A DNA stretch of 64,000 nucleotides, taken from a virus. Location: the IMG/VR virus record IMGVR_UViG_3300025087_000641, positions 32,001-96,000 of that record. The stretch is one strand, 5' to 3'. How positions within the stretch are numbered: the stretch's first letter is position 1; each line of letters opens with the position of its first letter. Position numbers and translations under genes: made by a program. Below the pieces are notes generated by a model, which was not told where the DNA came from, ran no database searches, and saw only the letters and a list, made by a program, of their open reading frames with translations. This document shows positions 17,647 to 57,100 of this stretch, in pieces.

Positions 17647-18146
17647 TGAGGAAAATAGAATTATCAAGAGGATATACTTCTGACATTGATGATGAGGATT
17701 ATGAATGGGTATCCCAATACAAATGGAATGTTTCACTGTGTAACCATACCCAATATGCTTATAGATATTCTTACAAGCCGAATGGGACTGGGGCGAAGAA
17801 ATACATGCACCGCGAGATAATGGAAAGATATAACGGGGCATTAGGGAGTGGTATGCAGATAGACCATATAAATCACGATGGACTGAACAACAGGAAAACA
17901 AATCTTAGGATATGTACCCAGTCCCAAAACAATTGGAACGGGAGGGGGATTTTGGAGGGAACCTCAAAATACAAGGGAGTATACTTTTACAAAAGTCGCG
18001 GGAAATGGGTTGCACAAATGTGCCTTTTCGGGAAGCGCATTTTCATTGGTAGATTCGACAGCGAAATTGATGCGGCAAGAGCATATGACAGAGTAGCAAA
18101 AGAAAAGTATGGAGAATTTGCGAAACTGAACTTCCCGGAGGAATAA
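17646..18146 (+). CDS. HNH-AP2 homing endonuclease
   Basis: MHREIM, IDHINHDGLNNRKTNLR, SKYKGV, FDSEIDAARAYD, GEFAKLNF. Confidence 0.92.
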   Translation: MRKIELSRGYTSDIDDEDYEWVSQYKWNVSLCNHTQYAYRYSYKPNGTGAKKYMHREIMERYNGALGSGMQIDHINHDGLNNRKTNLRICTQSQNNWNGRGILEGTSKYKGVYFYKSRGKWVAQMCLFGKRIFIGRFDSEIDAARAYDRVAKEKYGEFAKLNFPEE

Positions 18147-21821: not shown

Positions 21822-22430
21822 TTATTGTCCCCAAGTGGAGTAGTTGCAAGAGAAAAATATTTGACCAGTAGTATTTCTGCGCTCCATCCTTAAACTTGCA
21901 AAACAAGTACCGTGAATGCCGAGATCAAACATGGGCATTGTTTCACTTGTTGATGAAAATATGAAGTTTGCGATGGATGTTCCGCCATTTAGAAACACGG
22001 CGGATGCTCCCCCATTAACCTGTGTTCCAGCAACAAAAATCTTGTATAGAAGCCCCGAGGAAACTGTTACGGTTTCTGTAGATGCTCCGCCCATTGCACA
22101 AGTGACAGTTGACATTGCTGAGACATAGGCATGTCCTCTATCATCACCCCTCTGCGCCATTGCGTTGTTAGTCCCCATCGAGGATGCATTTGTGGTGAAT
22201 GAAAAGACATTCATCACTCCAACTGGGGCATTGGTGACTGGACTTCCGGCCACATGGGTTCCGACCTGTAATGCTGCATGGATTTTTGAGGTCGCTCCAA
22301 TTGTAGATGCGCCGATTCCGGCAAACAGGGCAAAGTCGGACTGCGAACTTGATATATTTATAGGGGCAAGCATTTTCGCCCCTCCAGCATCCTTCGGTGA
22401 AATATCCGCCGTAGAATAATTTGTAGTCAT
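21822..22430 (-). CDS. Ser/Thr/Gly-rich putative virion protein
   Basis: AAGGAG RBS; composition like the other decoration proteins; last gene of the late operon. Confidence 0.65.
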   Translation of the reverse strand: MTTNYSTADISPKDAGGAKMLAPINISSSQSDFALFAGIGASTIGATSKIHAALQVGTHVAGSPVTNAPVGVMNVFSFTTNASSMGTNNAMAQRGDDRGHAYVSAMSTVTCAMGGASTETVTVSSGLLYKIFVAGTQVNGGASAVFLNGGTSIANFIFSSTSETMPMFDLGIHGTCFASLRMERRNTTGQIFFSCNYSTWGQ

Positions 22431-22440
22431 GCGATTCTCC

Positions 22441-22580
22441 TTGACACAATTGTTCTAATGTGGTACAAATGTACTGTCTAGACGGTTGCTAGTCGGGTGT
22501 GATATAATGAATCGAGAAGTCTTGTGCAAGGCAATCGTCTAGACAACAATTGCCACCCGCACAAGGCTTTTTGTTTAAGG
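22441..22580 (+). promoter_or_regulatory. Tandem promoters + inverted repeat + leader terminator (locus A)
   Basis: TTGACA-N17-TACAAA; TGn-TATAAT at 22503; IR 22475-89/22531-45; stem 22517-27/22559-69 followed by a T tract. Confidence 0.7.
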
Positions 22581-22588
22581 AGTCCAAA

Positions 22589-23110
22589 ATGGAAGAAGAA
22601 ATATGGAAGGATATTCCAAATTTCCCGCACTATCAGATTAGCAATCTTGGGCGCGTTCGTTCGTTTTTCGTCAGGGGGCAAAAACAGAAACCATGTGATA
22701 CTCCGAGAATACTTGTTCCTGTTCATCGTGGCAAGGGATATTATGCGGTAAATCTTCATCGTGGAGATGATATGATTATGGTTAATATCCACCAAGCTGT
22801 TCTTACTGCATTTGTCGGCCAATGTCCAGATGGACTTGAGGCGTGCCACAATAACAGTGTTCGCAATGACAACAGGCTTGAGAATCTTAGATGGGATACC
22901 CGTTCCAGCAACTTTCTTGACAAACGCGCAAATGGAACATCTCGCTGTGGCGAGGAAAATAATAGGGCCAAACTTAATACTGCCCAAGTTCTCGAAATAC
23001 GAGAGAGGGCATTTCAGGGAGAATCGTTTGGGGTTCTCTCCGGGGATTATGGGATAAGTAATATCCATGTAAAGAGAATTGTAGAACGGGTTGTGTGGCA
23101 ACATATCTAG
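22589..23110 (+). CDS. NUMOD4-HNH homing endonuclease
   Basis: EIWKDIPNFPHYQISNLGRVRS, IHQAVLTAFVG, ACHNNSVRNDNRLENLRW; AAGGAG RBS. Confidence 0.92.
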   Translation: MEEEIWKDIPNFPHYQISNLGRVRSFFVRGQKQKPCDTPRILVPVHRGKGYYAVNLHRGDDMIMVNIHQAVLTAFVGQCPDGLEACHNNSVRNDNRLENLRWDTRSSNFLDKRANGTSRCGEENNRAKLNTAQVLEIRERAFQGESFGVLSGDYGISNIHVKRIVERVVWQHI

Positions 23111-23112
23111 CC

Positions 23113-23346
23113 CTATTTCTCCTTACTCAATGCTTGCGTCTCATCGTCCAGCCTCGCAAGATACTTTTCGCATTTTTCTAGGTCTGCTTGGATAGCATCA
23201 AGCACTGATTTGTCCGTCCCAATGCTCTTGCTCACCCGGTAGCGCATTTGAAGTTGCCAGCGAGTGTTGATATACATACTGACTTCTTGTGAGAGAAGCA
23301 CCAGTTTGGTTTGGTTATCAGGCTCTAAATCAAGAATGTTCGACAC
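23113..23346 (-). CDS. Small coiled-coil protein after the tail fibre
   Basis: Overlaps the end of the fibre gene; helical composition. Confidence 0.6.
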   Translation of the reverse strand: MSNILDLEPDNQTKLVLLSQEVSMYINTRWQLQMRYRVSKSIGTDKSVLDAIQADLEKCEKYLARLDDETQALSKEK

Positions 23347-25510
23347 TTTCGAGACTCCTAATTCTTTTGTGAAGTTCGATTAGATGGGTAAAAATTTCTT
23401 CTATCTTCTCTAATGCAATATCGGCTCGATCAAAAATGCCAGACGGCTCATCTGTTATTCTCGGAAGTCGCATGTTCTCTTTGATGTATGATTCTATCTC
23501 ATCCAGCGATAGGCGCTGATAGCCTTCCGCCCCACGGTTTGTGGCGTATCTATTAATGTGATCGGTTAGCCAATATTCAAGTGCATAGTCTGGATTCCCA
23601 TATGCAGAATTATTTAAGTAAATATTTGTCGCCACATTGATAGTGCCACTACCCTTATCTCCGCCAGTAGGTGCGCCCATCTGTAGCCCAGCACCAGTAA
23701 TGACATTGGAGTTGCTTGTGGAAATGTACATGGCATAATTTGTACTCCCACCCGGATGCGTGCCGATTAGCAATCCGACATTGGCTGTAGCAATCGTTGC
23801 CTCAGCCATCACCAACGCGGCATAAGTGGAAATTGTCCCAGAACCACTTACACTTGGCACGCCAATATTGATACCCGCTACCGCCAATCCAGTAAATGCA
23901 CCTTTGGCGTAGGTGACATTCAACTGCAATCCACGTAAGGCATCACTGTTTGCAATGGCGGTCAATATCGTGCTTTCGTACAATCCTAGCGCCTGCCCGC
24001 CCGCGGCTGTCACACTCTGCGCCAATTCAATGCCGACAGGTGCGACCGTAGCCGCAGTCCCCAATAGTACCCGTCCGGCTTGTATCCACAGCGCCAACGG
24101 ATTTGTGATAGTGGCATTTGTCCCTGCCACCGGAGCGCCAGTAATTGCTACTGTTGCCGCCGTTGTAATTGTACTCGTTCCAGTAAAAGCATAGGTTGGG
24201 GGTTCAAATATTACTGCTCTCTGTGTGGTCACATCCCCAGAGAGCCATTGAACAGTTCTACTTAGTGCGAAATAAATATCTGTCGCCTCTCCATTTGCCG
24301 TCAGGCTGGTATGTGCCCCGCCCAAAACATAAATCAAATTTTGATGTGTCCCGGAAATTGCTGGTTGCGAGATGTATACGAATCTCGAACTAACCATTGG
24401 GACTCCGATTCCGAATGTACTTCCGTTGAATTGAAATGTCGAGTTTCCTGTTATTGCGGACGATGCACTCCAATAGGCAACATGATTTGCCGTTCCCGTG
24501 CCTGTTACAGTACCCGTGCCAGCCGTATTTCCGGGAATCCACCTGCCACTTGAAAATATAAGCACTTGGTCTGTAACAGCCCCAGTTGTGTCTACATCTG
24601 CCAATCCATTTAGAGTGTTATCGCCACTATCAGATGCAGAGGCAGACCCCACCATCATCAGGTCTGGCGGATTACCAGACAGACCCTCTAGTTGTTTGAT
24701 TCTGTCCAACAAATGTAATGCGGGAGGACTTGGAAACAGCCTCGCGTCTCTCATATTGTCCACCACAGAAGACCAATCAACAACGGTAGTGGTGGATGCA
24801 AGTTTTACATAGCCAAGTGGTATCTCGTTCCCTGCCGGTGCTGGTACTGGCGTGAATAGGTCGTAGATAATCTCTTGTGTTCCTGTGGCATATGGGACTC
24901 CGGGACGATAAACAAGAATATCTGCCTCTGGGTCTAGCCCAATGAGAACATATCGAATCTGTCCACTCGATGGCTTGAATTGAGTCAAGTCATCGGTTTG
25001 CGTGAATGGGAATCTCTGCCATGTGTCCCAGAAGTAAATGAATGACCTCACATTGGCAATCATTGACGATGGATAGGTTGGATAGACCAATCCCGGAAGG
25101 AATTGGAGAGGGTCTATGAATACCTCGTCGCCCCCATGCCATTCATGTTGCTGGTGGTGTGGGCCTACTATTGGGATAGTGCTTGCTGGAATATCTCCAA
25201 GTCCAGCATAGTGCATACTGATAATCTGTTCTTCTTGGTCAGACTCCCCGGGTTCGGGGAAGCCAATAAGAACTGGAAGATTATGAGATGGTTGAACAAC
25301 ACCACGATTTAGAATCTGGAAATATCGAGTGCTACTTACATCATCTCTGGCAAAAACGTAATTGTCACGATTGGGAACAAAGAGATTAGACGTGGCAGTA
25401 CCGCGCCCGTCACCGAGTACAGCAGAGCGTATCTGTTGAACTTGTTGGTATTGGGAGATGGTCTCTCTCCATCTCCGCCTAGCCTCAGCAAGAGTTGTCA
25501 CGATGACCAA
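23330..25510 (-). CDS. Tail fibre/spike with C-terminal chaperone-like domain
   Basis: G/T/A-rich shaft; C-terminal PDYALE..LSLDEIESYIKENMRLP..LEKIEEIFTHLIEL. Confidence 0.8.
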   Translation of the reverse strand: MVIVTTLAEARRRWRETISQYQQVQQIRSAVLGDGRGTATSNLFVPNRDNYVFARDDVSSTRYFQILNRGVVQPSHNLPVLIGFPEPGESDQEEQIISMHYAGLGDIPASTIPIVGPHHQQHEWHGGDEVFIDPLQFLPGLVYPTYPSSMIANVRSFIYFWDTWQRFPFTQTDDLTQFKPSSGQIRYVLIGLDPEADILVYRPGVPYATGTQEIIYDLFTPVPAPAGNEIPLGYVKLASTTTVVDWSSVVDNMRDARLFPSPPALHLLDRIKQLEGLSGNPPDLMMVGSASASDSGDNTLNGLADVDTTGAVTDQVLIFSSGRWIPGNTAGTGTVTGTGTANHVAYWSASSAITGNSTFQFNGSTFGIGVPMVSSRFVYISQPAISGTHQNLIYVLGGAHTSLTANGEATDIYFALSRTVQWLSGDVTTQRAVIFEPPTYAFTGTSTITTAATVAITGAPVAGTNATITNPLALWIQAGRVLLGTAATVAPVGIELAQSVTAAGGQALGLYESTILTAIANSDALRGLQLNVTYAKGAFTGLAVAGINIGVPSVSGSGTISTYAALVMAEATIATANVGLLIGTHPGGSTNYAMYISTSNSNVITGAGLQMGAPTGGDKGSGTINVATNIYLNNSAYGNPDYALEYWLTDHINRYATNRGAEGYQRLSLDEIESYIKENMRLPRITDEPSGIFDRADIALEKIEEIFTHLIELHKRIRSLESVEHS

Positions 25511-28467
25511 TCCACTTCCATGCGTTTGAGAGCATAGTCATTAACTGTCCCGCCAATATTCCCAAACACATTCTCAAAGTCTCCAGTCTTGTTCTGGAAT
25601 GTACTTCCGCCATCAGACGAATATCGTGGCGAGTCTGTCCCATAAACAATATAGAGTCTGTTGTAATTGTTTATCCACGTTTTGACATGGTATCCAAGAG
25701 TCAATCCGGGATTGACAAGCACCCAAGTTGCGCCACCGTCAATGGTCTTGAACACGCTTTTCTCGTCAGATACATAGATAGTATTACCGTCTCCAGTTAT
25801 ATCCTTTCTGTTACTTCCGGGCGGTGAACTCTTGCTATATCTACTTGGCGTAATATTGCTCCAACTCGCCCCCTGATTTTCGGTTTTGAATACGCCTGTG
25901 GTTGTAGATACATAGATGATTTGGTCGTTGTCATTCCCGGAATAGGGTAGATATAGACTCACTGCATATCCAGAGGCGGCAGGGAAAGACAGGGAACTCC
26001 AAGAACCTCCCCCATTAGAACTCATGTAGACATATGCGGTAGTGGCTGTTGACGAATTGCTACCCAAGAAGAAGAGATTGGATATACTGTGGTTGCTGTA
26101 AACAACCTCGCCCTGACTATTGTAACTAACTGCAATAGTCGCCCAACTCCAAGTAGAACCATTGTTGGAAGTTACACCTATTTGTGGCGCGGCGGCGTTG
26201 TCCTGAACAAGAAGTGCCCAATATCCGCTTGACGCAATACTTGGCGAAAGAATCGGGATGGTTGGACTGGCAAGCGTTCCGCCAAATCCTGCCTCAATTT
26301 GTGCGCCAGTCAATACCCTCGTCCATATCGGTGTTGTCTGATTCAGACTCGTTGTTTTCCAAATGTTGCCCTTTGTGGTTGCTATCCATGAGACAGTGCT
26401 TAGATTGTATGGGTCAAACACCAAGTCCGTAAATGCTTCAGAACTAAAGGTGATGTTGTTTGTAATGTTCTTCCACGATGGATTACTTGCCAAGAAGTTA
26501 GTAGTTCTTGCAACAATATCATTTGACCCAGATGGTGCTTGTGCGATAAGTGCCGCAATCTTTCCAGCAGCCCCACCGGGATTAGGCTCTCCAGGGGTTG
26601 GAGGTGTAATCAGTGGGGGGAAGTCAACCGAAGACCCGCCATGCCCATCAACAACCGACTCTGCGGTTATGTCAATCTCTGGCAATGCAGAGATTGGATT
26701 GTATGAAACCCTCATCTCGTATGGGACAAGACTCTGGTTGTTCCAATTTAGGCCACGCATATTTGTTGCACCAGTTGGAGAGAGTGACATTGTAATGCGA
26801 CTCTGCGGAACTGGGTCTAGGCGTAGATTCCCGGAAAGAGGAATGTTGACTCTCTTGTATGGATTGTTCCTCTTGGCTCTTAGATTCCCGGCCCATGTGA
26901 TTGCCGTGTCTGTATCTGGCGCTGTGGCATTACGGGATATTTCCTGCCTGCCTCCAAAGTGTCCCGCCCGATGACTTGGAGAGACACCACCGATTGGTGT
27001 ATAGACTCCGGCGCGAATAGCATAGATGGTCTGTTGGGAATTCTCGTCAAAGTGCGGATGTTCAAGTACAACTGCGCCTCGTCTATCCCCAGCACCAATG
27101 TCTGCAATAATCGGCAGTGAGGCGCTTGCCCCAGTAACGTGACTGTCCAGACTTGCATAAATTGAGGATTGCATGTCTGATGCCAGAAGCCCAAGAACAC
27201 CCTCATAGTTATAGCGCAATTGTTCCCACAAGTTCCCCTGTGGCAATGAACGAAATGCAAGTTCGAGAGATGATGCCGAATCTCCCGCAAAGTTGAAGTC
27301 GGTAACATTCCCAATGGTAGACCGATATTTGACGAGGGTTAGTGCCGCCTTGTCTATTGTCAATTGGGATGCCATAGTCCACGCTGATGCTGCAGACCCA
27401 CCCTCCAAGAATATGTCATAGGCGTCTGTCATTGCCAAGACTCTATCTATCGTTGCGACTCTGAATGACACATTTCCGGTGAATGGTTCTATGCGAGTGG
27501 AATCGTCAACAATCCACCCGACAAAGACAATGTTGTTCCTCCCAAATGAGTTTCCGCCAAGAGACGATGCAATCCCATTGTAAGATGCTTTCTCAAATAT
27601 GACTATCTGCGCACCTTCCGGGAAATTGTCGGAAGTAGCCCCGCTATAGGCTTGTATCCTGCCATCATATCCACCACTATTGAGTCCGCCAGCGATTTCC
27701 TCAATCATTACTCGCTGGGGTTGTGCGTTACTTGAATTGAATGCGAATGTCAGACGTTGCCCGATATGACTTGCACCGTTGGAATCCGTGACGGTGAGTG
27801 TGTGGTATCTCCCGCCTGACGATGCATTGGTATAAGTAATGACAATCGGATTCTGGGACGAACCAAGTTGGCTTGAAACAGTCTGTCCATTGGGGAAACT
27901 CCACGACTGAGACGTAATGGATACTGCCCCAGTAAACGAATAACTCCTATCCCCAACATAACTTGCCGTACCGACTCCGCTGTCAAGCCATACCACGGCA
28001 GGCGGGCCGAGTAATGCTAATGGCCCAAAATTCCTTGTTTGTGCTGTGTATGGGTCTAGGTCTACCCACCACGCAGATGTAGCAGTATCATATGAGGGAT
28101 GAACAGACCAAGGTGCATACTCCTCAACTATTGTTGCAATAGCACCATTCCATCTCGTGATGCCACTACCGTATTCTCCAACATGGAGTAGACTTGCAGA
28201 TGTTGGGGTTGCCCTAATCCTCATTTTCCCCTTGTCATATTGCCCAACATTTGTTCCGATTCTAACTGTCATTCCTTTTCGAGCATCAGAGAGATTGCCC
28301 TGCAAAGTATTGCTTGCAGTAATGGCACTCGCGGGAAAGTTGTCGGGAATGGCATTGACAGACCCCGCCCAAATTATGCGCGGTTGGGCGACGGCACAGT
28401 AATATTCACTGCGCTGTGGATGCGCCCTAAAAATAGCCTTTTCGTTAGTCGTCAGTGCTATTCTCAT
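25498..28467 (-). CDS. Tail tip/hub protein with C-terminal Asp-box (BNR) beta-propeller
   Basis: Lies after TMP and Dit; repeats TSNNGSTW, SSNGGGSW, TENQGASW, TIDGGATW, SSDGGSTF. Confidence 0.8.
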   Translation of the reverse strand: MRIALTTNEKAIFRAHPQRSEYYCAVAQPRIIWAGSVNAIPDNFPASAITASNTLQGNLSDARKGMTVRIGTNVGQYDKGKMRIRATPTSASLLHVGEYGSGITRWNGAIATIVEEYAPWSVHPSYDTATSAWWVDLDPYTAQTRNFGPLALLGPPAVVWLDSGVGTASYVGDRSYSFTGAVSITSQSWSFPNGQTVSSQLGSSQNPIVITYTNASSGGRYHTLTVTDSNGASHIGQRLTFAFNSSNAQPQRVMIEEIAGGLNSGGYDGRIQAYSGATSDNFPEGAQIVIFEKASYNGIASSLGGNSFGRNNIVFVGWIVDDSTRIEPFTGNVSFRVATIDRVLAMTDAYDIFLEGGSAASAWTMASQLTIDKAALTLVKYRSTIGNVTDFNFAGDSASSLELAFRSLPQGNLWEQLRYNYEGVLGLLASDMQSSIYASLDSHVTGASASLPIIADIGAGDRRGAVVLEHPHFDENSQQTIYAIRAGVYTPIGGVSPSHRAGHFGGRQEISRNATAPDTDTAITWAGNLRAKRNNPYKRVNIPLSGNLRLDPVPQSRITMSLSPTGATNMRGLNWNNQSLVPYEMRVSYNPISALPEIDITAESVVDGHGGSSVDFPPLITPPTPGEPNPGGAAGKIAALIAQAPSGSNDIVARTTNFLASNPSWKNITNNITFSSEAFTDLVFDPYNLSTVSWIATTKGNIWKTTSLNQTTPIWTRVLTGAQIEAGFGGTLASPTIPILSPSIASSGYWALLVQDNAAAPQIGVTSNNGSTWSWATIAVSYNSQGEVVYSNHSISNLFFLGSNSSTATTAYVYMSSNGGGSWSSLSFPAASGYAVSLYLPYSGNDNDQIIYVSTTTGVFKTENQGASWSNITPSRYSKSSPPGSNRKDITGDGNTIYVSDEKSVFKTIDGGATWVLVNPGLTLGYHVKTWINNYNRLYIVYGTDSPRYSSDGGSTFQNKTGDFENVFGNIGGTVNDYALKRMEVDWSS

Positions 28468-28614
28468 ATAACCCTATCGCCAAAATCTCATGTATGGGCC
28501 GAATCCCATCTCTCCGAATCAATCCCTATTCTTCGGAAAATTCTCTACGATACATATGGATACAACTTCTCAGACATGGATGACTACGACTTGTCAAGGC
28601 TTCGCCCTAAGTAA
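28468..28614 (+). pseudogene. Relic 3' end of a deleted HNH endonuclease
   Basis: ITLSPKSHVWAESHLSESIPILRKILYDTYGY aligns with ISLCRKCHRRAEAHPNVSVPQLQSLLIERYSY of the 36351 nuclease. Confidence 0.65.
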
Positions 28615-28942
28615 CTGCAATGCCATTGATTAGAGCAGACCACCTGCCAACATATCCAGCCTCGAATGTTGGTCTGCCAATTTGCAAGAAGATTCCAGCG
28701 TTAGAATACGAAACGAAAGAGCCAGTATCTAGTGATAGCAATTGAATAGATGTCAGACTCGCACCATTGAATGCCGCCCATTGTTGATATGAGGCATAAG
28801 TACAAGCATCAAATTCAAGTCTTGCTGACTTCGTGGCGGCATAGACTGGCCTACCCGTGTGGTCAGTCCCGAGAACAATGTCCTGCCACGACTGTTGATA
28901 TGGTGCAAGGCTGGCTGTTTGACCATTGATGGTGTATGGCAC
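28607..28942 (-). CDS. Putative distal tail protein
   Basis: Immediately after TMP; AGGAG RBS; beta-rich, 111 aa. Confidence 0.65.
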   Translation of the reverse strand: MPYTINGQTASLAPYQQSWQDIVLGTDHTGRPVYAATKSARLEFDACTYASYQQWAAFNGASLTSIQLLSLDTGSFVSYSNAGIFLQIGRPTFEAGYVGRWSALINGIAVT

Positions 28943-28950
28943 AGTATCTC

Positions 28951-31515
28951 CTATATCGCAATCACATCCACAACAGCATTCAGGGCTGCGTTCCGAACGG
29001 CAGAGGCAAGTATGCCATCCCCCTGAACGTTTAGAGTTACCATGATATTAGACCCAGTTCCACCAGCCATTAGCATTGGCTCTTGACCACCACCAGGGCC
29101 AGGGGCGGGATATGGGTTGTCCCCCAAGTCTGGAATTGGGGCGGGCGGGCCAGGTTCTTCGCCATATGGAATGGGGGGTGGATTCCCGCTAGGAGTACCG
29201 CCCCCTCCAGATTCAAGGTCGCCATAATATTGATTGATACCCATTCTTTCTTGCCAATACCGAATTAGATTTGTAATGCGTTGCTGATATTCAAGACTCT
29301 CTCTGCCTGAAACATTTGTTAGGAACAATTCAATATTTGCTTCTTCTTGGCGACGATACGCCTCTTGTTCGCCAATCTGTTCCTGTAACGCCTGTTGCAA
29401 ATCCCGCTTTCGTCTTTCGTCTGCCCGCCGTGCGTCCTCTACCTCGCGGTCATATTGTCTCTGGATTTCGCGGCGTCTATTATCATACTCGTCGGCAATA
29501 TCCTTGAGCCTGTCCTGCTTCTGGCGCTCGGCATCTTCCTCTTTCTGCTTGCGGTCTGCCTCGGCGTCTTTAAGTTCCTCGTTGCGGGCTAGTTCGGCCT
29601 CAAACAATGCGCGGGCATCAAGGTCAATAAGCGCCTGAATTCTTGAGCGGGCATATTTGTCAAGTATCTTTTGAATACGTCTCTGGTATGCGGACTCGGC
29701 ATCCTCTGAGTCCTTGTGTCTCTTCTCCTCGGCATCAGAGATTGCTTTATCCCGATCCTTCTGCGATTTCTCCTCAAGATCAGCCAAATCCCTGTCGCGC
29801 TTTGTGGCAGCATCAATCATGTCATCGGCCAACTCGCGCTCAGAGTCGAGGACATCCTGTTTGTATTTGTCCCTAAGTTCTTGAATTTTCTTGTCAACTT
29901 TTTCCCAAAGTTCAAGAGTCTTCTGTGCGGCCTGTTCAAATGCTACAGGCTTGAAAGCATCCTGAAGTTCTTTGAGTGTGATAATGCCATCTTTGCCCGC
30001 CACTTCTAGGGCGTCTCTGAATTTGAATATTGCCTCATCTGCTAATCCGAAAGCAACCCTAAGTTTATCCAGTGCCTCTGGGGTTAGAGTCCCAGCCTTC
30101 TCGTTGAACTCTATAGCCTTCTTTGCGGCCTCTTCAAATCCAAAATCTAGTGTTTTCCCAGATATGTCGTTAAGTTTTTCAAGCGCCTCGGTTATTGCGT
30201 TCTCGCGTTGTTCTTGAAATGCCAGTTGTTCATTGAGGGCTTCAATTGCCTCGCGTCTGTCATCTGTAGCCCTTATTCCGTTATATTCAGATTCGGAAAG
30301 AAGATAATTTGACTGAACTAATGTCTCTATAGTATCAGTCCCGTCAGACATTACACTTACAAGATCGCCACTACTGTTTACGGCCAAGTTTTGTGATTTT
30401 GCAACCCGCTCCAATTCTGCGCGATATTCTCCATAGGTCTTGGAACTTTTAGACATCTCGCTGGCATGTGTTTTTATTGCCGCATTGATGTCTATGTATC
30501 CAAATAGAAGAATGTCAAGGGACTTTATGAGTGGCGAAACAGCATCACCAATATGTGTCTTTATCGCATTTGTAGCATCTGTAATATGTGTCTCAAATCG
30601 CTCATAGGCATTTGCGGCATCGTCAACCAATCCGCCAGTATCTTTCAGGAGTTTATTCCCATCCTCAATAATGGCGTTTGTTAGTGCCTGTCGCTTCTCT
30701 GCCTCGGTTAGATCATCTGCCACTTTGCCAATTGACTTCCCATAATTGGCGTAGGCGGTTTCTCCATCAATGACAATACCAATATCGTCAAGGACGCGGG
30801 TAGACAGACGCCCAATACCGAGGATGATACGTTCAAATGCGGCTTCTGTGTCAAGTCCGGCAGCACGTCCACGAATGGCGGCAATCTCAAGCAACTTCGC
30901 CATTGTGTCGGTATCTCTCGCCACTCCGAGGAGCATAGATCGGTTTGCCTGTGTAATGGCTTCGTTGGCAGAGATAGCACCGTGCGAGGCGGTTTTCATC
31001 TTCGCCACCGCCTCTTCCATATCAACGCCGTAACTCTGTGCTAATTTAGTGCCTGTCTCCCGCAGGCGGTCAATGGCCGCGCCCTCTTTTCCGAAGTCGT
31101 ATGCGGATTTTATGGCAACAGCAAACGCGGTAAGAATTCCAGTCGCAATTAGAGCGTCTTGGGCAAGAGCGGCAAATGATTTGCCAAATTCCTCATTCTG
31201 CTTGATCGCCCCCTCCATGCCTCCTTTTGCCCCAATCGTGGAGAGACGCCCGAGGAATGTTCGTTGTATATCGTTGAACTTCTGTTGTTGGTCTGCTAAT
31301 TCCTTTTGGAGGAGTATCTGCTGCTTGATGTTGGCTTGTGAATTCTTGAAAGCCTCTGTTTCAGAAGACCGAAGTAAGGCATTTCTATTACGGAGAGACT
31401 CGTATTGGGCGCGATTCAGGGCCTCAACTGAGGCTTTCGCCTCATCAAGCACTTTTTTCCCCGCGAACATCGCGTTAATTAGAATCTTGATTTCGTCGGA
31501 TGCGCCTGTTGGCAT
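28951..31515 (-). CDS. Tape measure protein
   Basis: Long Ala-rich helical protein; GIGRLSTRVLDDIGIVID motif; charged coiled coil; follows the chaperone genes. Confidence 0.9.
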   Translation of the reverse strand: MPTGASDEIKILINAMFAGKKVLDEAKASVEALNRAQYESLRNRNALLRSSETEAFKNSQANIKQQILLQKELADQQQKFNDIQRTFLGRLSTIGAKGGMEGAIKQNEEFGKSFAALAQDALIATGILTAFAVAIKSAYDFGKEGAAIDRLRETGTKLAQSYGVDMEEAVAKMKTASHGAISANEAITQANRSMLLGVARDTDTMAKLLEIAAIRGRAAGLDTEAAFERIILGIGRLSTRVLDDIGIVIDGETAYANYGKSIGKVADDLTEAEKRQALTNAIIEDGNKLLKDTGGLVDDAANAYERFETHITDATNAIKTHIGDAVSPLIKSLDILLFGYIDINAAIKTHASEMSKSSKTYGEYRAELERVAKSQNLAVNSSGDLVSVMSDGTDTIETLVQSNYLLSESEYNGIRATDDRREAIEALNEQLAFQEQRENAITEALEKLNDISGKTLDFGFEEAAKKAIEFNEKAGTLTPEALDKLRVAFGLADEAIFKFRDALEVAGKDGIITLKELQDAFKPVAFEQAAQKTLELWEKVDKKIQELRDKYKQDVLDSERELADDMIDAATKRDRDLADLEEKSQKDRDKAISDAEEKRHKDSEDAESAYQRRIQKILDKYARSRIQALIDLDARALFEAELARNEELKDAEADRKQKEEDAERQKQDRLKDIADEYDNRRREIQRQYDREVEDARRADERRKRDLQQALQEQIGEQEAYRRQEEANIELFLTNVSGRESLEYQQRITNLIRYWQERMGINQYYGDLESGGGGTPSGNPPPIPYGEEPGPPAPIPDLGDNPYPAPGPGGGQEPMLMAGGTGSNIMVTLNVQGDGILASAVRNAALNAVVDVIAI

Positions 31516-31516
31516 A

Positions 31517-31852
31517 TTACTCTTTTGGCCTTTGCGGTAACTGGACTCTTACTTCAAGCGGATTGTTAGTCTTTGTTTCCCCGCCTTTTGCCCACCGCAA
31601 TAGACTTACCCCATTAGGATTGTTCTTTTCCCAATCACGCTTATTCTTGGCGTCGTGTTTGCCCTTTGCTGTATGATATACATTAAGGCATGTCCGAATA
31701 TCCCTGACAACTCGTGGGTCTTGTGTGTCAAATCCAAGTTCGGATGGTGACATTCTAAGATGTTCGCAAATCAATCCGGCCTCAAGCAGTCGTGGCGGGG
31801 GGCAACGACTCGGACTATCCACATAGTCTATTACCCCCCTTGCGAGTTTGGG
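31517..31852 (-). CDS. Tail assembly chaperone -1 frameshift extension (gpT-like)
   Basis: The -1 frame from the slippery site reads PKLARGVIDYVDSPSRCPPP... into ORF 31517..31822. Confidence 0.8.
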   Translation of the reverse strand, partial: PKLARGVIDYVDSPSRCPPPRLLEAGLICEHLRMSPSELGFDTQDPRVVRDIRTCLNVYHTAKGKHDAKNKRDWEKNNPNGVSLLRWAKGGETKTNNPLEVRVQLPQRPKE

Positions 31853-32166
31853 TCAGAGGCGTTGGTCTTTTCGTAGAGGTCGGTGATGCACTCCACAAGC
31901 CACGCCACAAGTTTTGGTGACGCCGGGAAAGTCTCGTAAGTCACGGGATTCGGAAGTCCAGAAATATCCCACAGTTTTACAAGCGGAATAGCAGCAGGCA
32001 GAAGTGCGGCATAGAACTCGTAAAGAGAGTCTGTTGACTCTTTGAGTTTCGTTGCCACCGATAGTGCTTTCTCCCATGCTACCAAAGCGGGAAACGAGAG
32101 ATAGTCATTGTGGAAGGTTATCTTTCCCCTCCACCTATCAACATCACATGGATATTCAAGAGGCAT
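31831..32166 (-). CDS. Tail assembly chaperone (gpG-like)
   Basis: Upstream of TMP; ends with a slippery site. Confidence 0.8.
   Translation of the reverse strand: MPLEYPCDVDRWRGKITFHNDYLSFPALVAWEKALSVATKLKESTDSLYEFYAALLPAAIPLVKLWDISGLPNPVTYETFPASPKLVAWLVECITDLYEKTNASDPNSQGG
31846..31852 (-). other. Programmed -1 ribosomal frameshift site C CCA AAC
   Basis: In-phase X XXY YYZ heptamer a few codons before the stop; the -1 frame is open. Confidence 0.8.
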
Positions 32167-32200
32167 TTGTCATCTTCTTTCTGTGGTGTTCGCCACAAAC

Positions 32201-32244
32201 AAAAACGGGCAACGGCAGTCTTTTCGACTATTTTCCGTTGCCCG
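32201..32244 (-). terminator. Intrinsic terminator in the leader of the chaperone gene
   Basis: CGGGCAACGG...CCGTTGCCCG followed by TTTTT on the minus strand. Confidence 0.7.
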
Positions 32245-32327
32245 CGCTAAAGGCCGAGTCTATTATTCAGTTCCCATAAAAGTACCCAAGATAATGATAA
32301 GTGTGGACTATTTATGGGTTACATAAC

Positions 32328-32355
32328 ATTTTATACAAGTTTTCACAAAAGTCAA
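32328..32355 (-). promoter_or_regulatory. Sigma70-type promoter
   Basis: TTGACT-N16-TAAAAT. Confidence 0.6.
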
Positions 32356-32705
32356 GGGGAGATTTCAACCACTCCCGAAATTGTAATTTGTGTCGCAGAC
32401 TTGCACTTTCGGCACACAAACTCCATGTCTCCAGAGTCGTCTACAATCGTGTAAGGCAGGGCTAAATCACATATCCTCGCCAAACAGTCAAGATTCGAGC
32501 AACGGATAGGCTCTGGGGCGATTGGGGCGACGTAACGGGGCAATTTCACCCTGTAACTGACAATTGCCTCGTGGTGTATTGCTTTTGAGCACCGCTGGCA
32601 CTTTACGGACAGGTCTGGGGCATTTCCCTGCATAACCTGACACTCATGCCTGCTTTTGAATAGGAGGGCATTGCAGGTGTGGCGGACATCATTTCTGAAG
32701 ACCAT
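32352..32705 (-). CDS. Double zinc-ribbon protein (Mu Com-like)
   Basis: RHTCNALLFK..VKCQRCSK and RCSNLDC..FVCRKCK. Confidence 0.65.
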   Translation of the reverse strand: MVFRNDVRHTCNALLFKSRHECQVMQGNAPDLSVKCQRCSKAIHHEAIVSYRVKLPRYVAPIAPEPIRCSNLDCLARICDLALPYTIVDDSGDMEFVCRKCKSATQITISGVVEISP

Positions 32706-32706
32706 T

Positions 32707-33789
32707 CTAATGCGTCAGTAGTCTAAGCCAGACAGACCAAATCCCAAGAAGGTCTGTAGTATCATCAAATGGAAGGGTCAGCATTACAAATGTTCCGGGG
32801 TTGTCATATTGTGCCCTAGTTCCAGACTCTAGGCGTGTGCCATATTTCAGATACAACAAAACGTGGTACTCCCACGGATTTGCCCCATACTTCTCTATAA
32901 TCTCATTGCGCTCATATTCATGTCCCGCCCAAAAGCGGTCACTCTTGCGTGAGGCCCGTTCATCAGATTCGGAGCGTAGAAACAGGTTGGCAAACAGATC
33001 ATATGCCCACACATCTTCGCGCAGTCTTGAGCGAAGTGACAGACGAGATAGATTTTCAAGCTCATACCAGAATGTTTTACACGCCAATTCGTCGCCGTAA
33101 TTGCACATTGCAGCTAATACTTCAAGCGTTGCAGCGCTGGTGTTACTTTCTAGTATCGCGGATTTCTCTCTCCATGTTTCTCCGTCTTGGGGATTTAGAA
33201 AGTTTCCCCCCTGAATATGAACCATTTCGTGGACGAAAACCTCAAGTATGTCTCGGCTGTCTTGCCATGCCGGATCATCAAAGTAGCGTGCATTTATCCA
33301 GACGACACACATATTCCTACCAACGCTTGGGTCATACTCACAATTGGCACGTCCGCCAACCTGAAACGATGTATCCCCATCCCACGGACGAACAACAATG
33401 TAATCTGGATATATGCCCTCTCCAACACGCTCTCTAAGATAATACGGAATAATGCGGGTTGCATAATCAACAAGCCATTTGCTGTTGGTATATATTCCCC
33501 AAGTCTCTTCTTGGTCATAGAATTGACTCCGGTTGTAATCTGCTACAACTGGAACTGGCTCACCCGCCTTCTGGTGTGCCACAACTGCTATCACTGCATC
33601 TCTGGCGATTTGAGGTATTTGTGTATTGTGCCATGCCCACACCTCAGTACCTACAGACCCCAATGATACAACAGTCACCACAAGAACAAGAATGCCCATC
33701 TTGATTTGTGGCCTGAATTTTCGCCAGCCAGTTACTATTGGCTTCTTTGCTATTCGTTTCTTTGTGGTGGACTTTCTTTTTGCGGGCAT
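32707..33789 (-). CDS. Membrane-anchored/secreted HExxH metalloprotein (putative zincin)
   Basis: Basic N-terminus plus a TM segment; VFVHEMVH with a downstream Glu (LESNT). Confidence 0.7.
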   Translation of the reverse strand: MPAKRKSTTKKRIAKKPIVTGWRKFRPQIKMGILVLVVTVVSLGSVGTEVWAWHNTQIPQIARDAVIAVVAHQKAGEPVPVVADYNRSQFYDQEETWGIYTNSKWLVDYATRIIPYYLRERVGEGIYPDYIVVRPWDGDTSFQVGGRANCEYDPSVGRNMCVVWINARYFDDPAWQDSRDILEVFVHEMVHIQGGNFLNPQDGETWREKSAILESNTSAATLEVLAAMCNYGDELACKTFWYELENLSRLSLRSRLREDVWAYDLFANLFLRSESDERASRKSDRFWAGHEYERNEIIEKYGANPWEYHVLLYLKYGTRLESGTRAQYDNPGTFVMLTLPFDDTTDLLGIWSVWLRLLTH

Positions 33790-33839
33790 ATCATACTCCC
33801 CCTAAAAGGGTGATTTATATATTTGATTCTACCACGCCA

Positions 33840-33972
33840 TTGACACTATGTAAAGGTATGGTACAATTTGGTTGTCACCCACTATGCAAGATGGTATAAT
33901 GTCTTTGCGACTCCTCTGCCACAAGCCTTGCGCTAGTGGGTGACACAGAGGAGTTGCTTTTATTTTCAGGAG
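33840..33972 (+). promoter_or_regulatory. Tandem promoters + inverted repeat + leader terminator (locus B)
   Basis: TTGACA-N16-TACAAT; TTGTCA-N17-TATAAT; IR 33873-84/33934-45; stem 33907-18/33946-57 followed by TTTTATTTT. Confidence 0.75.
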
Positions 33973-33977
33973 TCATT

Positions 33978-34760
33978 ATGGCTAAAAGTTCTTTGGGTAA
34001 AAAGCGCGGTATTCACACTTGCAATGTGTGTGGCGTAAAATTTAAGAGATGGTGTGATGCGCCAATACTCTTGATATGTGAGGACTGTTATTTAATAACT
34101 ATACCATGTGAACAATGTGGAGAACCTGCAAGGAAATATACAAAAGTTGCTAGGCCAAGAAGATTCTGTGACAGCAAGTGCAGGCAGACATATATTGCTA
34201 GAAAGACAGCACAAACTAGGGGCGAAACAACAAGGCAAAAACACAAAACAGACCAAGTTTACCACGAAAAGATGTCTGCAATTTTAAGGTCTGTTCATCA
34301 TCTTTCACAAACGAAAGAGAATTTTGAGGCAATATCTAAAAGTCTCAAGAAGAGATGGAAAAATAAAGATTATAGGGAATATATGTCGGCAATGTCGCGT
34401 CGGATTTGGGAAGACAGGGATAAAATGCTGAATTCCGTAAAGTGGCATCCAACTAAAATGACAAATCTAGAAAGGAAAATTGATGAAATTATATCGGAAT
34501 GGGGAATTACATATCACTTAAATTATATGGTCGGGAGATACTTTATAGATTTTGCATTCCCAGAACATATGATTGGCATAGAATGTGATGGGGAATATTG
34601 GCATCGTAACACAAGGGAAAGAGAAGCCAAGCGTGATGCTTGGCTCTCATCTTGTGGTTGGACAATTATTAGACTCTCTGAAAACGAGATTGAAAATTGT
34701 CCCGTTTGGACACTTGCCACAAAGGTGGTTCCCCTTATAGAGAATTGTTCTAATCCCTAG
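33978..34760 (+). CDS. Vsr/DUF559-like endonuclease with N-terminal zinc fingers
   Basis: TNLERKI, YFIDFAFP, IECDGEYWH, RDAWL..GWTIIRLSE; AGGAG RBS. Confidence 0.88.
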   Translation: MAKSSLGKKRGIHTCNVCGVKFKRWCDAPILLICEDCYLITIPCEQCGEPARKYTKVARPRRFCDSKCRQTYIARKTAQTRGETTRQKHKTDQVYHEKMSAILRSVHHLSQTKENFEAISKSLKKRWKNKDYREYMSAMSRRIWEDRDKMLNSVKWHPTKMTNLERKIDEIISEWGITYHLNYMVGRYFIDFAFPEHMIGIECDGEYWHRNTREREAKRDAWLSSCGWTIIRLSENEIENCPVWTLATKVVPLIENCSNP

Positions 34761-36139
34761 AGTACCCCCGTGCCCAGACTCCTCCCCGGAACTCCACTAA
34801 GCAACTGGAAACTGAATGGAAAGTTATCATTTCTAACAACTCGGTAATTCCCAGTCAGAACCCATGCACCATTGCTATCAGCAACACTCACATTTTCAAT
34901 ATAGGCAGGCACGGAAGCACTCAATTGCATATTGGAAGCACCGATTCGCCAGGGTGTAGAATATAACCAATGCATCTGAATCTCGCTGGCGTTCTTCCAC
35001 TTCTGATACTCAAGTTCATTGTTTAACAGAAGGGTAATGTTGCCAGTATATTCAGTTGCACCGAAGAATGAACCCTGTGGGCCTTGCACGCCAGCAGCGG
35101 CACGATAGTTGCGGTTGCCAGTTGAGATAGTCATGTCGCCGTTCTGCATCACATCCCACTGAGTCCCGTTGTCGCGTCTCACGCGCAATCCCCACGCGGG
35201 CCAGATGCGAAGTGGGGATGGAGAATGGAGAGTCGTTTCCGCACTAGACCCAGTTGGTTCGCCCTCAAAGTCAGCGGTTACATTGAAGATACCATCAACT
35301 GCCTCGGAGTCGGCAGTAAGAGTTAGACTCTTTAGAACCATCCCCGTATGCATAAAGGAGAGGTTGGCAGATGCCTCGCCAGCAGTCGGGTTATTGAGTC
35401 TCTCGAATGCGAGAGTTGGCGCTGAGGAGTTGACCGTAAAAGTGTGCAACCAGTGTTTGATTGCAGAGACACTGACAACGCCCGTAGATGCTCCAGAGAT
35501 AGAGATACCAGAGGCCGCGATAGAAGACCATGCAGTTCTGGTATAGGCAACTACTGATTGGGCAGACCCAAACGAGATTTGTTCACTCGCGCCATTACCA
35601 TACGAGTCGATGCCACTGATGGAGATAGTACCAGCGGGAATACCACCCGACAGTTGGATTTGTAGAATCTTTCCGCCCGATTCTGGTTGATTGTTGAGAA
35701 CAAGGGCTTTTGGGTCTGCGTTTAGAGGTTCATTTCCCCGCAGAAGTTGTGGCGCTGATGCTTGCGGAATCATGTCCGTAGAAGCACCACCCATCGCCGC
35801 ATACAGAAGTACACCCAAGAAGTCGGGGATGACGGGTGCAGAGAATCCGCCCTCTGACCAAGTACGTCCCTGCACTGGCGGTTGCTGATTGATGCGCCTA
35901 TCGCCTGCATGTCCAGCGGGAAAGATAGTTGCTCGTTGTTCTTGCAGGGAGGGCAAGTCATCGGTAATCATGTTGTGCCACATGCCCCCCTCCCACCATG
36001 CCTTTCCGAGGTGGGCCGCAAGTCCAGTGGCGTAAGCACCCGCACTCGGCGCAACACCACGATTCCACGCTGGTGTGGCGGCCTGATTCACCTCAACAGA
36101 AATTTTGAGTCCCTGATTAAAAGTTGAACTGATTGCCAT
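34757..36139 (-). CDS. Major tail (tube) protein with insertion domain
   Basis: Between terminator and chaperone genes; LGVLLYAAMG, HTFT..PTLAFE, GMVLKSLTL. Confidence 0.75.
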   Translation of the reverse strand: MAISSTFNQGLKISVEVNQAATPAWNRGVAPSAGAYATGLAAHLGKAWWEGGMWHNMITDDLPSLQEQRATIFPAGHAGDRRINQQPPVQGRTWSEGGFSAPVIPDFLGVLLYAAMGGASTDMIPQASAPQLLRGNEPLNADPKALVLNNQPESGGKILQIQLSGGIPAGTISISGIDSYGNGASEQISFGSAQSVVAYTRTAWSSIAASGISISGASTGVVSVSAIKHWLHTFTVNSSAPTLAFERLNNPTAGEASANLSFMHTGMVLKSLTLTADSEAVDGIFNVTADFEGEPTGSSAETTLHSPSPLRIWPAWGLRVRRDNGTQWDVMQNGDMTISTGNRNYRAAAGVQGPQGSFFGATEYTGNITLLLNNELEYQKWKNASEIQMHWLYSTPWRIGASNMQLSASVPAYIENVSVADSNGAWVLTGNYRVVRNDNFPFSFQLLSGVPGRSLGTGVL

Positions 36140-36212
36140 TTTTATCTCCCCGAATATCTTTACTCTATCACAAGATATTCAGAATGCAACACGAGTTTTG
36201 TTAAAAGAACAC

Positions 36213-36346
36213 TTGTACTATATCCCATTATATGGTAAAATTTGCTTGCTGAGGTAAGCCATAATACGGTATAATAGAATTCATCAATCGCCTGCATCGG
36301 CTTGCCTCAGCAACAAGACCGTATCGCGGGCGATTGTATTTGGAGG
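36213..36346 (+). promoter_or_regulatory. Tandem promoters + inverted repeat + leader hairpin (locus C)
   Basis: TTGTAC-N17-TAAAAT; TTGCTG-N18-TATAAT; IR 36246-60/36299-313; stem 36285-95/36326-36 followed by TATTT. Confidence 0.7.
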
Positions 36347-36350
36347 TTGT

Positions 36351-37334
36351 ATGCCAAGAAAAGGCCAGAAGATTACCAAAGAACATAGCCAAGCTATTGC
36401 CGATGCTAATAGGCGTAGAATTTTCACCCCAGAAATGCGTGGGAATTACAGTAAAGCACAACAGGGCAAAACCCTTTCCGATGAGCATAAGAAGAAACTC
36501 AGCGACTCTCTTTCTGGAGACAGAAATCCATTTTTTGGAAGAACACATAGCGAGGAGACTCGCAGAAAAATATCCGAGGGGAATAAGGGCAAGGTCGGCT
36601 ACAATCTTGGGAAACATCTCTCTGACAAAACGAAAGAAAAACTTAGACGGGTTCATCTTGGTAAGCCAAGTCCCATGAGGGGAAAGCGGATGTCGGAAGA
36701 ATCTAGGGAGAAAATGAGAATGGCTTGGGGCAATCGGCGTATGCGTATGGCTGAGGCAAAGGATATTAGAAAGCGCCAAAGAATGAAAGATGCTTGGAAG
36801 TCCAGAAAGGATAAAATTGGCGGGAATGGAGTTCATCCCGAAACAAGGGAAAAGTTGAGCATCAGTAGAATGGGAACTGGCAATTCTTTTTACGGAAAGA
36901 AACATTCCCCTGAAACAATAGAAAAAATGACAGGCCCAAACAATAGCCAGTGGAAGGGGGGACACGAAAGATATTATGGCCCGGAATGGACTAAAACACT
37001 GAGGGCAAAAATAAGAAGGCGTGATGGATACAAATGTATGATTAATCCATCCCATCTCATTTCTGGTCATTTTGGCGTTCCAGATGTTCATCACATTATT
37101 CCATATTTTGACGCTATTGATGCACAACTAGAGCGTCCACACCGTCACGAAAATCTTATATCGCTCTGTAGAAAATGTCATCGTCGGGCAGAGGCACACC
37201 CAAATGTCTCTGTGCCACAACTCCAATCATTGCTTATTGAAAGATATAGTTATCAAAGGGAAAATATGTTATCTATGCCGATATACATTCAAACTGAAAA
37301 ATCCACCCAATCATGTCCGTGCCCGCAAATGTGA
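36351..37334 (+). CDS. NUMOD3-repeat HNH homing endonuclease
   Basis: Repeated HSEETRRKIS-type units; WKGG, RRRDGYKC, VHHI, NLISLCRKCH. Confidence 0.9.
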   Translation: MPRKGQKITKEHSQAIADANRRRIFTPEMRGNYSKAQQGKTLSDEHKKKLSDSLSGDRNPFFGRTHSEETRRKISEGNKGKVGYNLGKHLSDKTKEKLRRVHLGKPSPMRGKRMSEESREKMRMAWGNRRMRMAEAKDIRKRQRMKDAWKSRKDKIGGNGVHPETREKLSISRMGTGNSFYGKKHSPETIEKMTGPNNSQWKGGHERYYGPEWTKTLRAKIRRRDGYKCMINPSHLISGHFGVPDVHHIIPYFDAIDAQLERPHRHENLISLCRKCHRRAEAHPNVSVPQLQSLLIERYSYQRENMLSMPIYIQTEKSTQSCPCPQM

Positions 37335-44975: not shown

Positions 44976-45407
44976 TTAGAGCATGAAAATTCTGCTTGCC
45001 CCTGCCGACCATTGAACCGTGATGTCACCACCGTTGGGCGAGGCCGGAATCCCGGTTGCCGTGTCAATCCACCCAATGAGCCTAGCTGTGCTTGGTGATC
45101 CAGTGTCCTGATAGATAACAATAGCACCAATGGCTGAGTTGGCTACAGCAGATACGGCAGATGCAGTATGGTCGTCAGCATCAGCGACTCCAGATGCAAC
45201 GGTCTTGCCACCCAATGCAGTTTCCGACATCCGTATTCTTGCGGAGTCTGGAATCTGAGTCAGGAATGTAATGTCAGTTACCGCATTATATCCGTTAGTG
45301 CCCCCAGCCCCTCTTGAGATGAAGACAAGTCTTATCGTGTCCGTATCCCAATCCAGAGTCCCGTCCAAGAAACCTTGTCTACCCGACATAAATAAGGTAT
45401 TTGCCAT
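44976..45407 (-). CDS. Conserved phage structural protein
   Basis: MANTLF..LDWDTDTI..PNGGDITVQW..IF pattern; GAGGT RBS. Confidence 0.7.
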   Translation of the reverse strand: MANTLFMSGRQGFLDGTLDWDTDTIRLVFISRGAGGTNGYNAVTDITFLTQIPDSARIRMSETALGGKTVASGVADADDHTASAVSAVANSAIGAIVIYQDTGSPSTARLIGWIDTATGIPASPNGGDITVQWSAGASRIFML

Positions 45408-45435
45408 TGACTTTTACCTCGCTAGATGGTACAAT
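45407..45435 (+). promoter_or_regulatory. Sigma70 promoter for leaderless HNH gene
   Basis: TTGACT-N17-TACAAT with TG extension; ATG begins 7 nt after the -10 box. Confidence 0.75.
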
Positions 45436-45442
45436 AGACTTT

Positions 45443-57087: not shown

Positions 57088-57100
57088 GTTAATCTCTATG

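Follow-up and report, generated by a model that had tools for sequence, protein, structure and literature searches.

IMG/VR record IMGVR_UViG_3300025087_000641 (105,404 bp) derives from an uncultured groundwater phage. We analyzed bases 32001-96000 of this record, a stretch of 64,000 nucleotides that we call the window and whose own numbering we use throughout, with a focus on a leader of about 150 nt that precedes each of three nuclease genes. BLAST searches of the region against a phage database, in near and distant modes, returned no match and no close relative in the phage collection. Rightward of ~21.8 kb, the window is occupied by - strand genes for virion proteins, among them those of the tail tube (34757-36139) and the portal (58148-60457). 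This virion block is broken by three + strand genes, all antisense to the late (virion) operon, with start codons at 22589, 33978 and 36351. Pfam assigns a nuclease domain of a homing endonuclease family to each of them, and the three are predicted to be free-standing homing endonuclease genes of different families, in agreement with a preliminary description of this DNA that had called them unrelated nucleases (Table 1). No relative of any of the three nucleases with more than 40% identity was found in IMG/VR.

Three unrelated nuclease genes share one leader geometry

The leaders of the three genes are identical in geometry and unlike in sequence. Each consists, in order, of a promoter (P1), a 12-15-nt box, a second promoter (P2) and a terminator hairpin that holds the complement of the box (the anti-box) in its loop. 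Two inverted repeats are interleaved at every locus, in the order box, stem 5' arm, anti-box and stem 3' arm; we refer to the box/anti-box helix as H1 and to the terminator hairpin as H2. This geometry had been reported for all three loci in the preliminary description, and we recovered every element at the positions given there.

A search of the whole 105-kb genome for interleaved inverted-repeat pairs, at a cut-off of 23 matches, returned four: the three leaders and a weaker pair at window positions 62439-62543. None was found in five mononucleotide shuffles of the genome. Within the region of the weaker pair lies a strong G+C-rich hairpin (62490-62541), with 15-bp arms that are 93% complementary and a 22-nt loop, inside the open reading frame 62155-62706 (- strand). 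No other copies of the boxes, including homing-site-like copies, were found with ≤3 mismatches in the genome or in the nuclease-free target alleles described below.

In a consensus promoter scan (20 kb), locus-2 P1, locus-2 P2 and locus-1 P2 were the top three sigma-70-like sites, all of them TG-extended. Only five sites in 105 kb match a composite -35/extended -10 pattern, four of them at antisense nuclease genes. The TATAAT hexamer that the preliminary description assigned to P2 is present, but the promoter relies mostly on its extended -10 and not, as had been supposed, on a -35 within the box. Two other functions for these regions were considered and rejected. A leader peptide is not indicated, since the short ATG frames are not conserved or have their start ahead of the predicted +1, and a terminator serving the - strand would lack a U tract after the hairpin on that strand.

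Covariation points to pairing in the sense transcript

Tail-tube protein homologues with 87-96% identity are present in groundwater metagenomes, and one alignment-based metagenome scan with these homologues supplied the loci of related phages. Ten distinct leaders of differing sequence have the design, three in the window and seven in related phages. Counts out of nine refer to the window leaders together with those of L093 (two), L092, L100, L107 and L089; the tenth leader is that of L119.

All nine leaders have the first box G exactly 7 nt past the P1 -10 hexamer. The P2 -10 hexamer likewise precedes the terminator stem by 6-9 nt in nine of nine; it reads TATAAT in six, TACAAT in two and TATACT in one, and is TG-extended in six. 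P2 is located 27-33 bp downstream of P1 in the same orientation, and the consensus TATAAT is found at the -10 of P2 in more leaders (6/9) than at that of P1 (3/9). From these distances, the P1 RNA should begin with the box and the P2 RNA at the foot of the terminator.

Leaders at the insertion site of nuclease 3 (site 3) could be aligned with one another. In this alignment both sides of H1 have changed, in compensation, in 8 of 16 pairs, and 90.6% of cells are paired, versus 25-43% after sliding the partners by 1-3 columns; the observed covariation values were reached by 0 of 500 shuffles. Pairing is invariant from the predicted +1 G onward and not upstream of that G. Between locus 2 and its homologue L093_2 there are three double changes in H1 and several in the terminator stem. 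H1 and H2 of the nine leaders together contain 12 non-Watson-Crick positions: 11 G.U, as read on the nuclease-sense strand, one U.U and no A.C. A scan that allowed any mismatch was the source of the five that fall in the window. Given the covariation, the sense-strand G.U pairs and the lack of further box copies, we favour pairing at the RNA level, in the sense transcript, over repeats that serve as protein operators. The same had been proposed in the preliminary description, and both the compensatory changes in homologous leaders and the strand-specific mismatches bear it out. RNAalifold gave no usable signal on the P2-RNA region, where the MAFFT alignment does not bring the terminator arms of the different subfamilies into register, and conservation of H2 was for that reason judged per sequence.

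Folding predicts two competing helices and a short hairpin RNA

When folded from the box G, the P1 RNA contains H1 in its minimum-energy structure in seven of the nine leaders, and nascent P1 RNA that ends with the anti-box folds H1 in all nine. H1 reaches 17-19 bp in some leaders, and the energies of forced-H1 and forced-H2 structures differ by 0.1-8.6 kcal/mol. The spacer between the anti-box and the 3' arm is 0 nt in the locus-2 family and 11-18 nt elsewhere. Since the anti-box abuts the 3' arm, H1 and H2 cannot coexist in the locus-2 family; with a spacer of 11-18 nt, they would exclude each other on kinetic or topological grounds only. Interleaved strands that form exclusive helices are the mark of a two-helix attenuator, and the interleaved order is found in all ten leaders.

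The hairpins also have the make-up of intrinsic terminators, with a G+C-containing stem of 8-14 bp followed by a U tract, and a run of at least 4 U stands directly after the stem in seven of nine leaders. The T-rich tract noted in the preliminary description is thus present, but at locus 3 it is weak (4 T in 5). A simple terminator scan did not list these hairpins because their loops are unusually long (26-39 nt). In the nine leaders the ribosome-binding site (RBS) follows the 3' arm and is part of neither helix, which argues for control by termination and not by RBS masking.

The predicted P2 RNAs are 58-64 nt long, in keeping with the terminated RNA of ~60 nt that had been postulated, and form predicted hairpins of -23 to -29 kcal/mol. 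In nine of nine, the 3' part of the anti-box is unpaired in the apical loop of this RNA, with 6-9 nt matching the 5' end of the P1 RNA. In a 7x7 cofold matrix of P1 5' ends and P2 RNAs, the cognate partner was the best in every row and column. Covariation and folding also support the earlier suggestion that the antiterminator is available only to P1 transcripts.

Table 1. Nuclease genes and leader elements at the three loci (window coordinates)
Feature	Position	Strand	Details
Homing endonuclease 1	22589-23110	+	173 aa; NUMOD4 + HNH_3 (Pfam); RBS 22577-22582
Locus 1 P1	22441-22469	+	-35 22441-22446, overlapping the RBS of the divergent - strand gene 21822-22430; 17-nt spacer; TG-extended -10 22464-22469
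Locus 1 box (H1 5' strand)	22475-22489	+	Predicted P1 start G 22476, 7 nt past -10; anti-box 22531-22545, 15 nt, 1 G.T
Locus 1 P2	22500-22508	+	Extended -10 TGnTATAAT; predicted start near 22515
Locus 1 predicted P2 RNA	22515-22576	+	62 nt; arms 22517-22527/22559-22569, anti-box in loop, U tract
Homing endonuclease 2	33978-34760	+	260 aa; DUF559/MTES_1575 (Pfam), Vsr-like fold family; 3' end overlaps tail-tube stop
Locus 2 P1	33840-33867	+	TTGACA, 16-nt spacer, TG-extended TACAAT; consensus matches 11/12
Locus 2 box	33873-33884	+	Predicted P1 start G 33874; anti-box 33934-33945, 12 nt, perfect
Locus 2 P2	33892-33900	+	Extended -10; -35-like TTGTCA 33872-33877 overlaps box; consensus 11/12
Locus 2 predicted P2 RNA	33907-33964	+	58 nt; arms 33907-33918/33946-33957, anti-box abuts 3' arm, U tract
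Homing endonuclease 3	36351-37334	+	327 aa; four NUMOD3 motifs + HNH (Pfam)
Locus 3 P1	36213-36241	+	TTGTAC, 17-nt spacer, TG-extended TAAAAT
Locus 3 box	36246-36260	+	Predicted P1 start G 36248; anti-box 36299-36313, 15 nt, 1 T.G
Locus 3 P2 -10	36270-36275	+	TATAAT, no TG extension
Locus 3 predicted P2 RNA	36282-36343	+	62 nt; arms 36285-36295/36326-36336, anti-box in loop, weak U tract

The leader belongs to a mobile nuclease cassette

BLAST comparison of the window with the loci of otherwise collinear relatives revealed presence/absence polymorphism at the same intergenic site. Site 3 is nuclease-free in L094, L090 and L091, and site 2 is nuclease-free in L092 and L099; site 1 could be compared only loosely, with the relative G001. 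In place of leader and gene together, the nuclease-free alleles have a short plain spacer or a simple bidirectional terminator. Because the whole leader is missing from these alleles, it belongs to the mobile nuclease cassette. In the nuclease-free allele of site 2 (L092:2950-3140; L099:760-950, reverse complement), a clean bidirectional terminator separates the tail-tube gene from the one that follows; no such terminator is left at this site in the window, where nuclease 2 overlaps the tail-tube stop codon by 4 nt.

Homologues of leaders 2 and 3 are both present in L093. At site 3, L092/L104, L100, L107 and L089 have other NUMOD3-HNH alleles (34-41% protein identity), whose leaders show the same architecture, each with a different box. 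A short A/C-rich motif, ACAA or ACAG, follows the final CA of the anti-box (window 36314-36320 and 22546-22552, and homologues). Locus 1 and all site-3 leaders retain it although their boxes diverge, and it could be an Hfq ARN-type site or an RNase site.

A covariance model, which the preliminary description had named as a check, was built from the site-3 leaders only. In a search of 64 kb it recovered the locus-1 leader from end to end (43.6 bits, E ~2e-5) and placed the locus-2 leader at rank 4 (14.4 bits, E 2.6); elsewhere, it also matched L093_2 and the HNH_3 leader of G001, near E = 1. These matches fit a shared modular design across unrelated nucleases, for which homology and convergence are not distinguishable from these data. 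The tenth leader, likewise found by covariance model, is a weaker one (L119:3172-3327, - strand; ~82.4 kb in the 100-kb relative G001), with a box start like that of locus 1, a degenerate H1 (9+4 bp) and a poor P2. The gene behind it encodes a 151-aa HNH_3 protein and immediately follows a tyrosine integrase gene, in the same orientation, so that antisense placement is not a requirement of the design. With this leader beside an integrase, G001 may be temperate.

Wider searches yielded little of this kind. An exact-pattern scan of IMG/VR (8-mer box start, -10 and anti-box end) gave six matches, all due to chance and none with the architecture. A relaxed architecture scan of 725 kb of nuclease-bearing loci returned mostly AT-rich chance matches and one weak candidate, L017. 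This AT-rich IMG/VR contig (L017:2395-2503) has an 8-bp box/anti-box pair interleaved with a terminator of 10 bp, which runs up to the ATG of a distant NUMOD4/HNH_3 homologue (32% identity), and may be a remote instance or a chance match. In L044 (2154-2228), a DUF559-type nuclease gene is preceded by interleaved repeats whose second helix contains the RBS (AAGGAGGA), an arrangement that we read as a T4-like RBS-masking variant and not as a terminator. A scan of genome contigs with the tail-tube alignment found no match and hence gave no clue to the host.

Other nuclease genes of the window lack the leader

The leader is not present at the other nuclease genes of the window (45443-45985, 57230-58213 and 17640-18146). 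The first of these is an antisense gene encoding a 181-aa HNH/HNH_5 protein (45407-45985 with its promoter), preceded by a P1-like promoter (TTGACT, 17-nt spacer, TG-extended TACAAT) and by neither a box nor a terminator leader; as the ATG lies 8 nt past the -10, its mRNA is predicted to be leaderless. A fourth antisense nuclease of 327 aa (57090-58213 with its upstream region; DUF559/Vsr-like) has a P1-like promoter and a 5' region of ~95 nt with small hairpins, in which no P2, interleaved repeat or terminator was found. The HNH_3 gene at 17640-18146 is part of a + strand sugar-pathway block or operon, co-oriented with its neighbours and with its start overlapping the upstream stop, and has no promoter or leader of its own.

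A proposed promoter-selected attenuator and its alternatives

We infer that the P1 transcript begins at the G that opens the box. The anti-box would emerge ~55 nt later, and the 5' end of the P1 RNA would pair with it to form H1, a helix of 12-16 bp. Because H1 encloses the terminator 5' arm, with 0-18 nt remaining before the 3' arm, H2 could not close in time and polymerase would read into the nuclease gene. A P2 transcript, by comparison, would start 0-3 nt before the terminator stem, without the box, and would fold H2 and stop at the U tract, leaving the 58-64-nt hairpin RNA. This switch in cis, in which P1 transcripts escape termination through H1 and P2 transcripts terminate, seems to us likely. 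The apical loop of the P2 RNA would present the anti-box segment that is complementary to the first 6-9 nt of the P1 RNA, and abundant P2 RNA could then bind nascent P1 RNA, pre-empt H1 and restore termination. We hold this step in trans more tentatively, at somewhat short of an even chance. Should it hold, entry would be followed by a pulse of nuclease and then by silencing, with specificity set by each box. The repression in trans, naive-cell burst and element-specific immunity envisaged in the preliminary description are in this respect plausible, being consistent with the display of the loop and with the predicted orthogonality.

Taken as a whole, this account of a promoter-selected transcription attenuator that resides in a mobile nuclease cassette has in our estimate a probability of about 0.5. 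A broader proposal is possible and correspondingly more speculative: that the leader is a riboregulator portable across at least three unrelated nuclease families, whose terminated P2 RNA is a sense-strand-encoded antisense RNA directed at the start of the P1 mRNA, and that it makes constitutive promoters yield a pulse, confined to entry into naive cells, and an allele-specific, orthogonal 'immunity', with the box pairs of alleles that compete for one site diversifying like incompatibility groups.

Several points count against the attenuator. H2 is thermodynamically favoured over H1 in L093_3 and L089 (two of nine) and in the tenth leader, and locus 3 and L093_3 have weak U tracts. With a spacer of 11-18 nt, H1 and H2 might form together as a pseudoknot, which folding programs cannot score. 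The sigma-70 reading of the leader promoters is an assumption. The design was seen in a single clade of uncultured phages, and a model search of 433 kb around distant nuclease homologues found nothing. As for the step in trans, the net cofold gains are only -2 to -12 kcal/mol, small because the P2 RNA hairpin is itself stable, and the anti-box in cis holds a large local-concentration advantage.

These last points favour an attenuator that works in cis only, with P2 as a heavily attenuated second promoter that provides low basal or differently timed nuclease and with the P2 RNA as a by-product lacking any function in trans. The evidence from folding, covariation and geometry applies to it equally, the anti-box in cis would kinetically outcompete an RNA in trans, and tandem promoters with leader termination that releases short RNAs are known, an example being the greA leader GraL (PMC2836576). 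Such an account sits less well with the retention of P2 in every leader at a fixed distance, with its RNA starting at the terminator base, and a promoter that mostly terminates is costly unless its RNA is used. The more frequent consensus -10 in P2 than in P1 suits an RNA made in excess, and the apical loop shows a seed for the P1 5' end in nine of nine. We regard a function in cis alone as possible and somewhat doubtful. The helices might instead govern mRNA fate, with equal read-through from P1 and P2: H1 and H2 would bury the 5' triphosphate against 5'-end-dependent decay, or H1 would be an RNase III site. Both predicted transcripts do start within 0-3 nt of a helix, and H1 pairing begins exactly at the predicted +1 and reaches 17-19 bp in some leaders, yet this leaves unexplained the placement of the anti-box within the terminator loop in all ten leaders, the 0-nt abutment that makes the helices exclusive in the locus-2 family and the U tracts kept in seven of nine, and we think it improbable.

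Two further explanations draw on T-even phages. Box and anti-box could be inverted half-sites in DNA, where a dimeric protein, the nuclease or a repressor of the phage, would occlude P2 or loop it out; the P1 start and the region upstream of P2 are both overlapped by the box, and I-TevI represses its own promoter via an operator that resembles its homing site (PMC2988022). However, the mismatches are G.T and never A.C, a distinction that matters only for the RNA of one strand, and from allele to allele the half-sites vary together without constraint. Dimeric binding at the same 38-51-bp spacing would have to exist in each of three unrelated nuclease families, and the search of the genome and nuclease-free alleles (≤3 mismatches) found no further copy of any box, so we give operators very little credence. 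Translational control of the T4 type, in which a hairpin hides the RBS in longer transcripts and a proximal promoter bypasses that hairpin, is the known rule for I-TevI, segB and Aeh1 mobE (PMC2988022). Here the RBS falls outside both helices in the nine leaders, as noted above, and the proximal promoter P2 lies upstream of the whole hairpin, which its RNA includes rather than bypasses; such control is already contradicted by the sequence and hardly credible.

Relation to known systems

Rfam 15 families, including those of the P4 CI, P1 c4 and IsrK type, gave no match at E ≤ 1 to any leader in 20-40 kb of the window, and text searches of the literature found no description of this two-promoter leader arrangement. 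The leader would represent RNA-mediated attenuation with a new link to mobile nucleases, and is apparently undescribed. By analogy, its closest logic is the antisense-driven attenuation of the pT181 and pIP501 plasmids. Attenuation of plasmid rep genes by antisense RNA (pT181 RNAI/II, pIP501 RNAIII, pAMbeta1) was reportedly described by Novick in 1989 and Brantl in 1993. In these plasmids, and here as proposed, the nascent leader folds into either a pre-emptor/antiterminator or a terminator, an abundant small hairpin RNA pairs with the pre-emptor 5' strand so that the terminator forms, and specificity resides in a short loop-target pair. The plasmid regulator, however, comes from the opposite strand and controls a replication protein, whereas the regulator here would be the terminated leader itself, made from the same strand by the tandem promoter 27-33 bp downstream, and would control a homing nuclease. 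The anti-box is on the same strand as the box and P2 is co-oriented with P1, so the P2 RNA is no countertranscript; moreover, the antiterminator 3' strand lies in the terminator loop and not in an arm.

The preliminary description had likened the leaders to phage P4 CI RNA and P1 c4 RNA, a comparison that holds as an analogy but not as an identity of kind, given the lack of an Rfam match and the predicted promoter of its own in place of processing. In P4, the seqB segment of CI RNA pairs with seqA and seqC and causes premature termination (PMC4825925). As in P4 CI, N15 CA and P1/P7 c4, a small RNA from the sense strand of a leader is complementary to the same transcript, with termination or blocked expression as the outcome. 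Those RNAs are processed from a longer transcript and control lysogeny or anti-repressor genes, whereas a dedicated promoter and terminator are predicted here, the single target lies at the extreme 5' end and the module is attached to homing nucleases. Gifsy-1 IsrK offers another likeness, in that a terminated short leader form acts in trans on the read-through form of the same locus (PMC4825925). IsrK is made from one promoter and acts by activating translation, whereas the leaders here have two promoters, confine the target box to the longer RNA and are predicted to repress by termination.

Promoter-dependent RBS hairpins and autorepression control the nuclease genes of T-even phages (I-TevI, I-TevII, I-TevIII, segB and Aeh1 mobE; PMC2988022). 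There too, a 5' end set by the promoter decides which helix forms and hence the output of nuclease, and the elements sit in nuclease cassettes. In T4, additional 5' sequence closes an RBS-sequestering hairpin and represses translation, whereas here it is predicted to open a terminator and activate transcription, with a second promoter whose expected product is a discrete small RNA. Hairpins of the RBS-sequestering type were not found in the leaders. The PeSLs of T4-type phages are said to be near-identical repeats that act as recombination substrates. PeSL cassettes resemble the leaders as modules of promoter and hairpin beside accessory phage genes (PMC2839356, PMC4122927). The three leaders differ in sharing geometry and not sequence, and in their interleaved second helix.

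Implications

To our knowledge, T-even phages, in which hairpins gate translation, are the only ones where it has been worked out in detail how a free-standing homing endonuclease is kept from harming the phage that carries it and the host. The leader offers a second, transcription-based way to restrain a nuclease that is carried within the mobile cassette, is common to unrelated nuclease families and needs nothing phage-specific beyond host-type promoters. Nuclease production is probably limited to a short pulse. If the step in trans is true, the leader would be a small (~150 nt) module for generating pulses, orthogonal and easy to reprogram, and the P2 RNA a natural small RNA that is made on its target's own strand and acts on the target 5' end. 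A ready set of specificity variants would be at hand in the covarying alleles of one insertion site.

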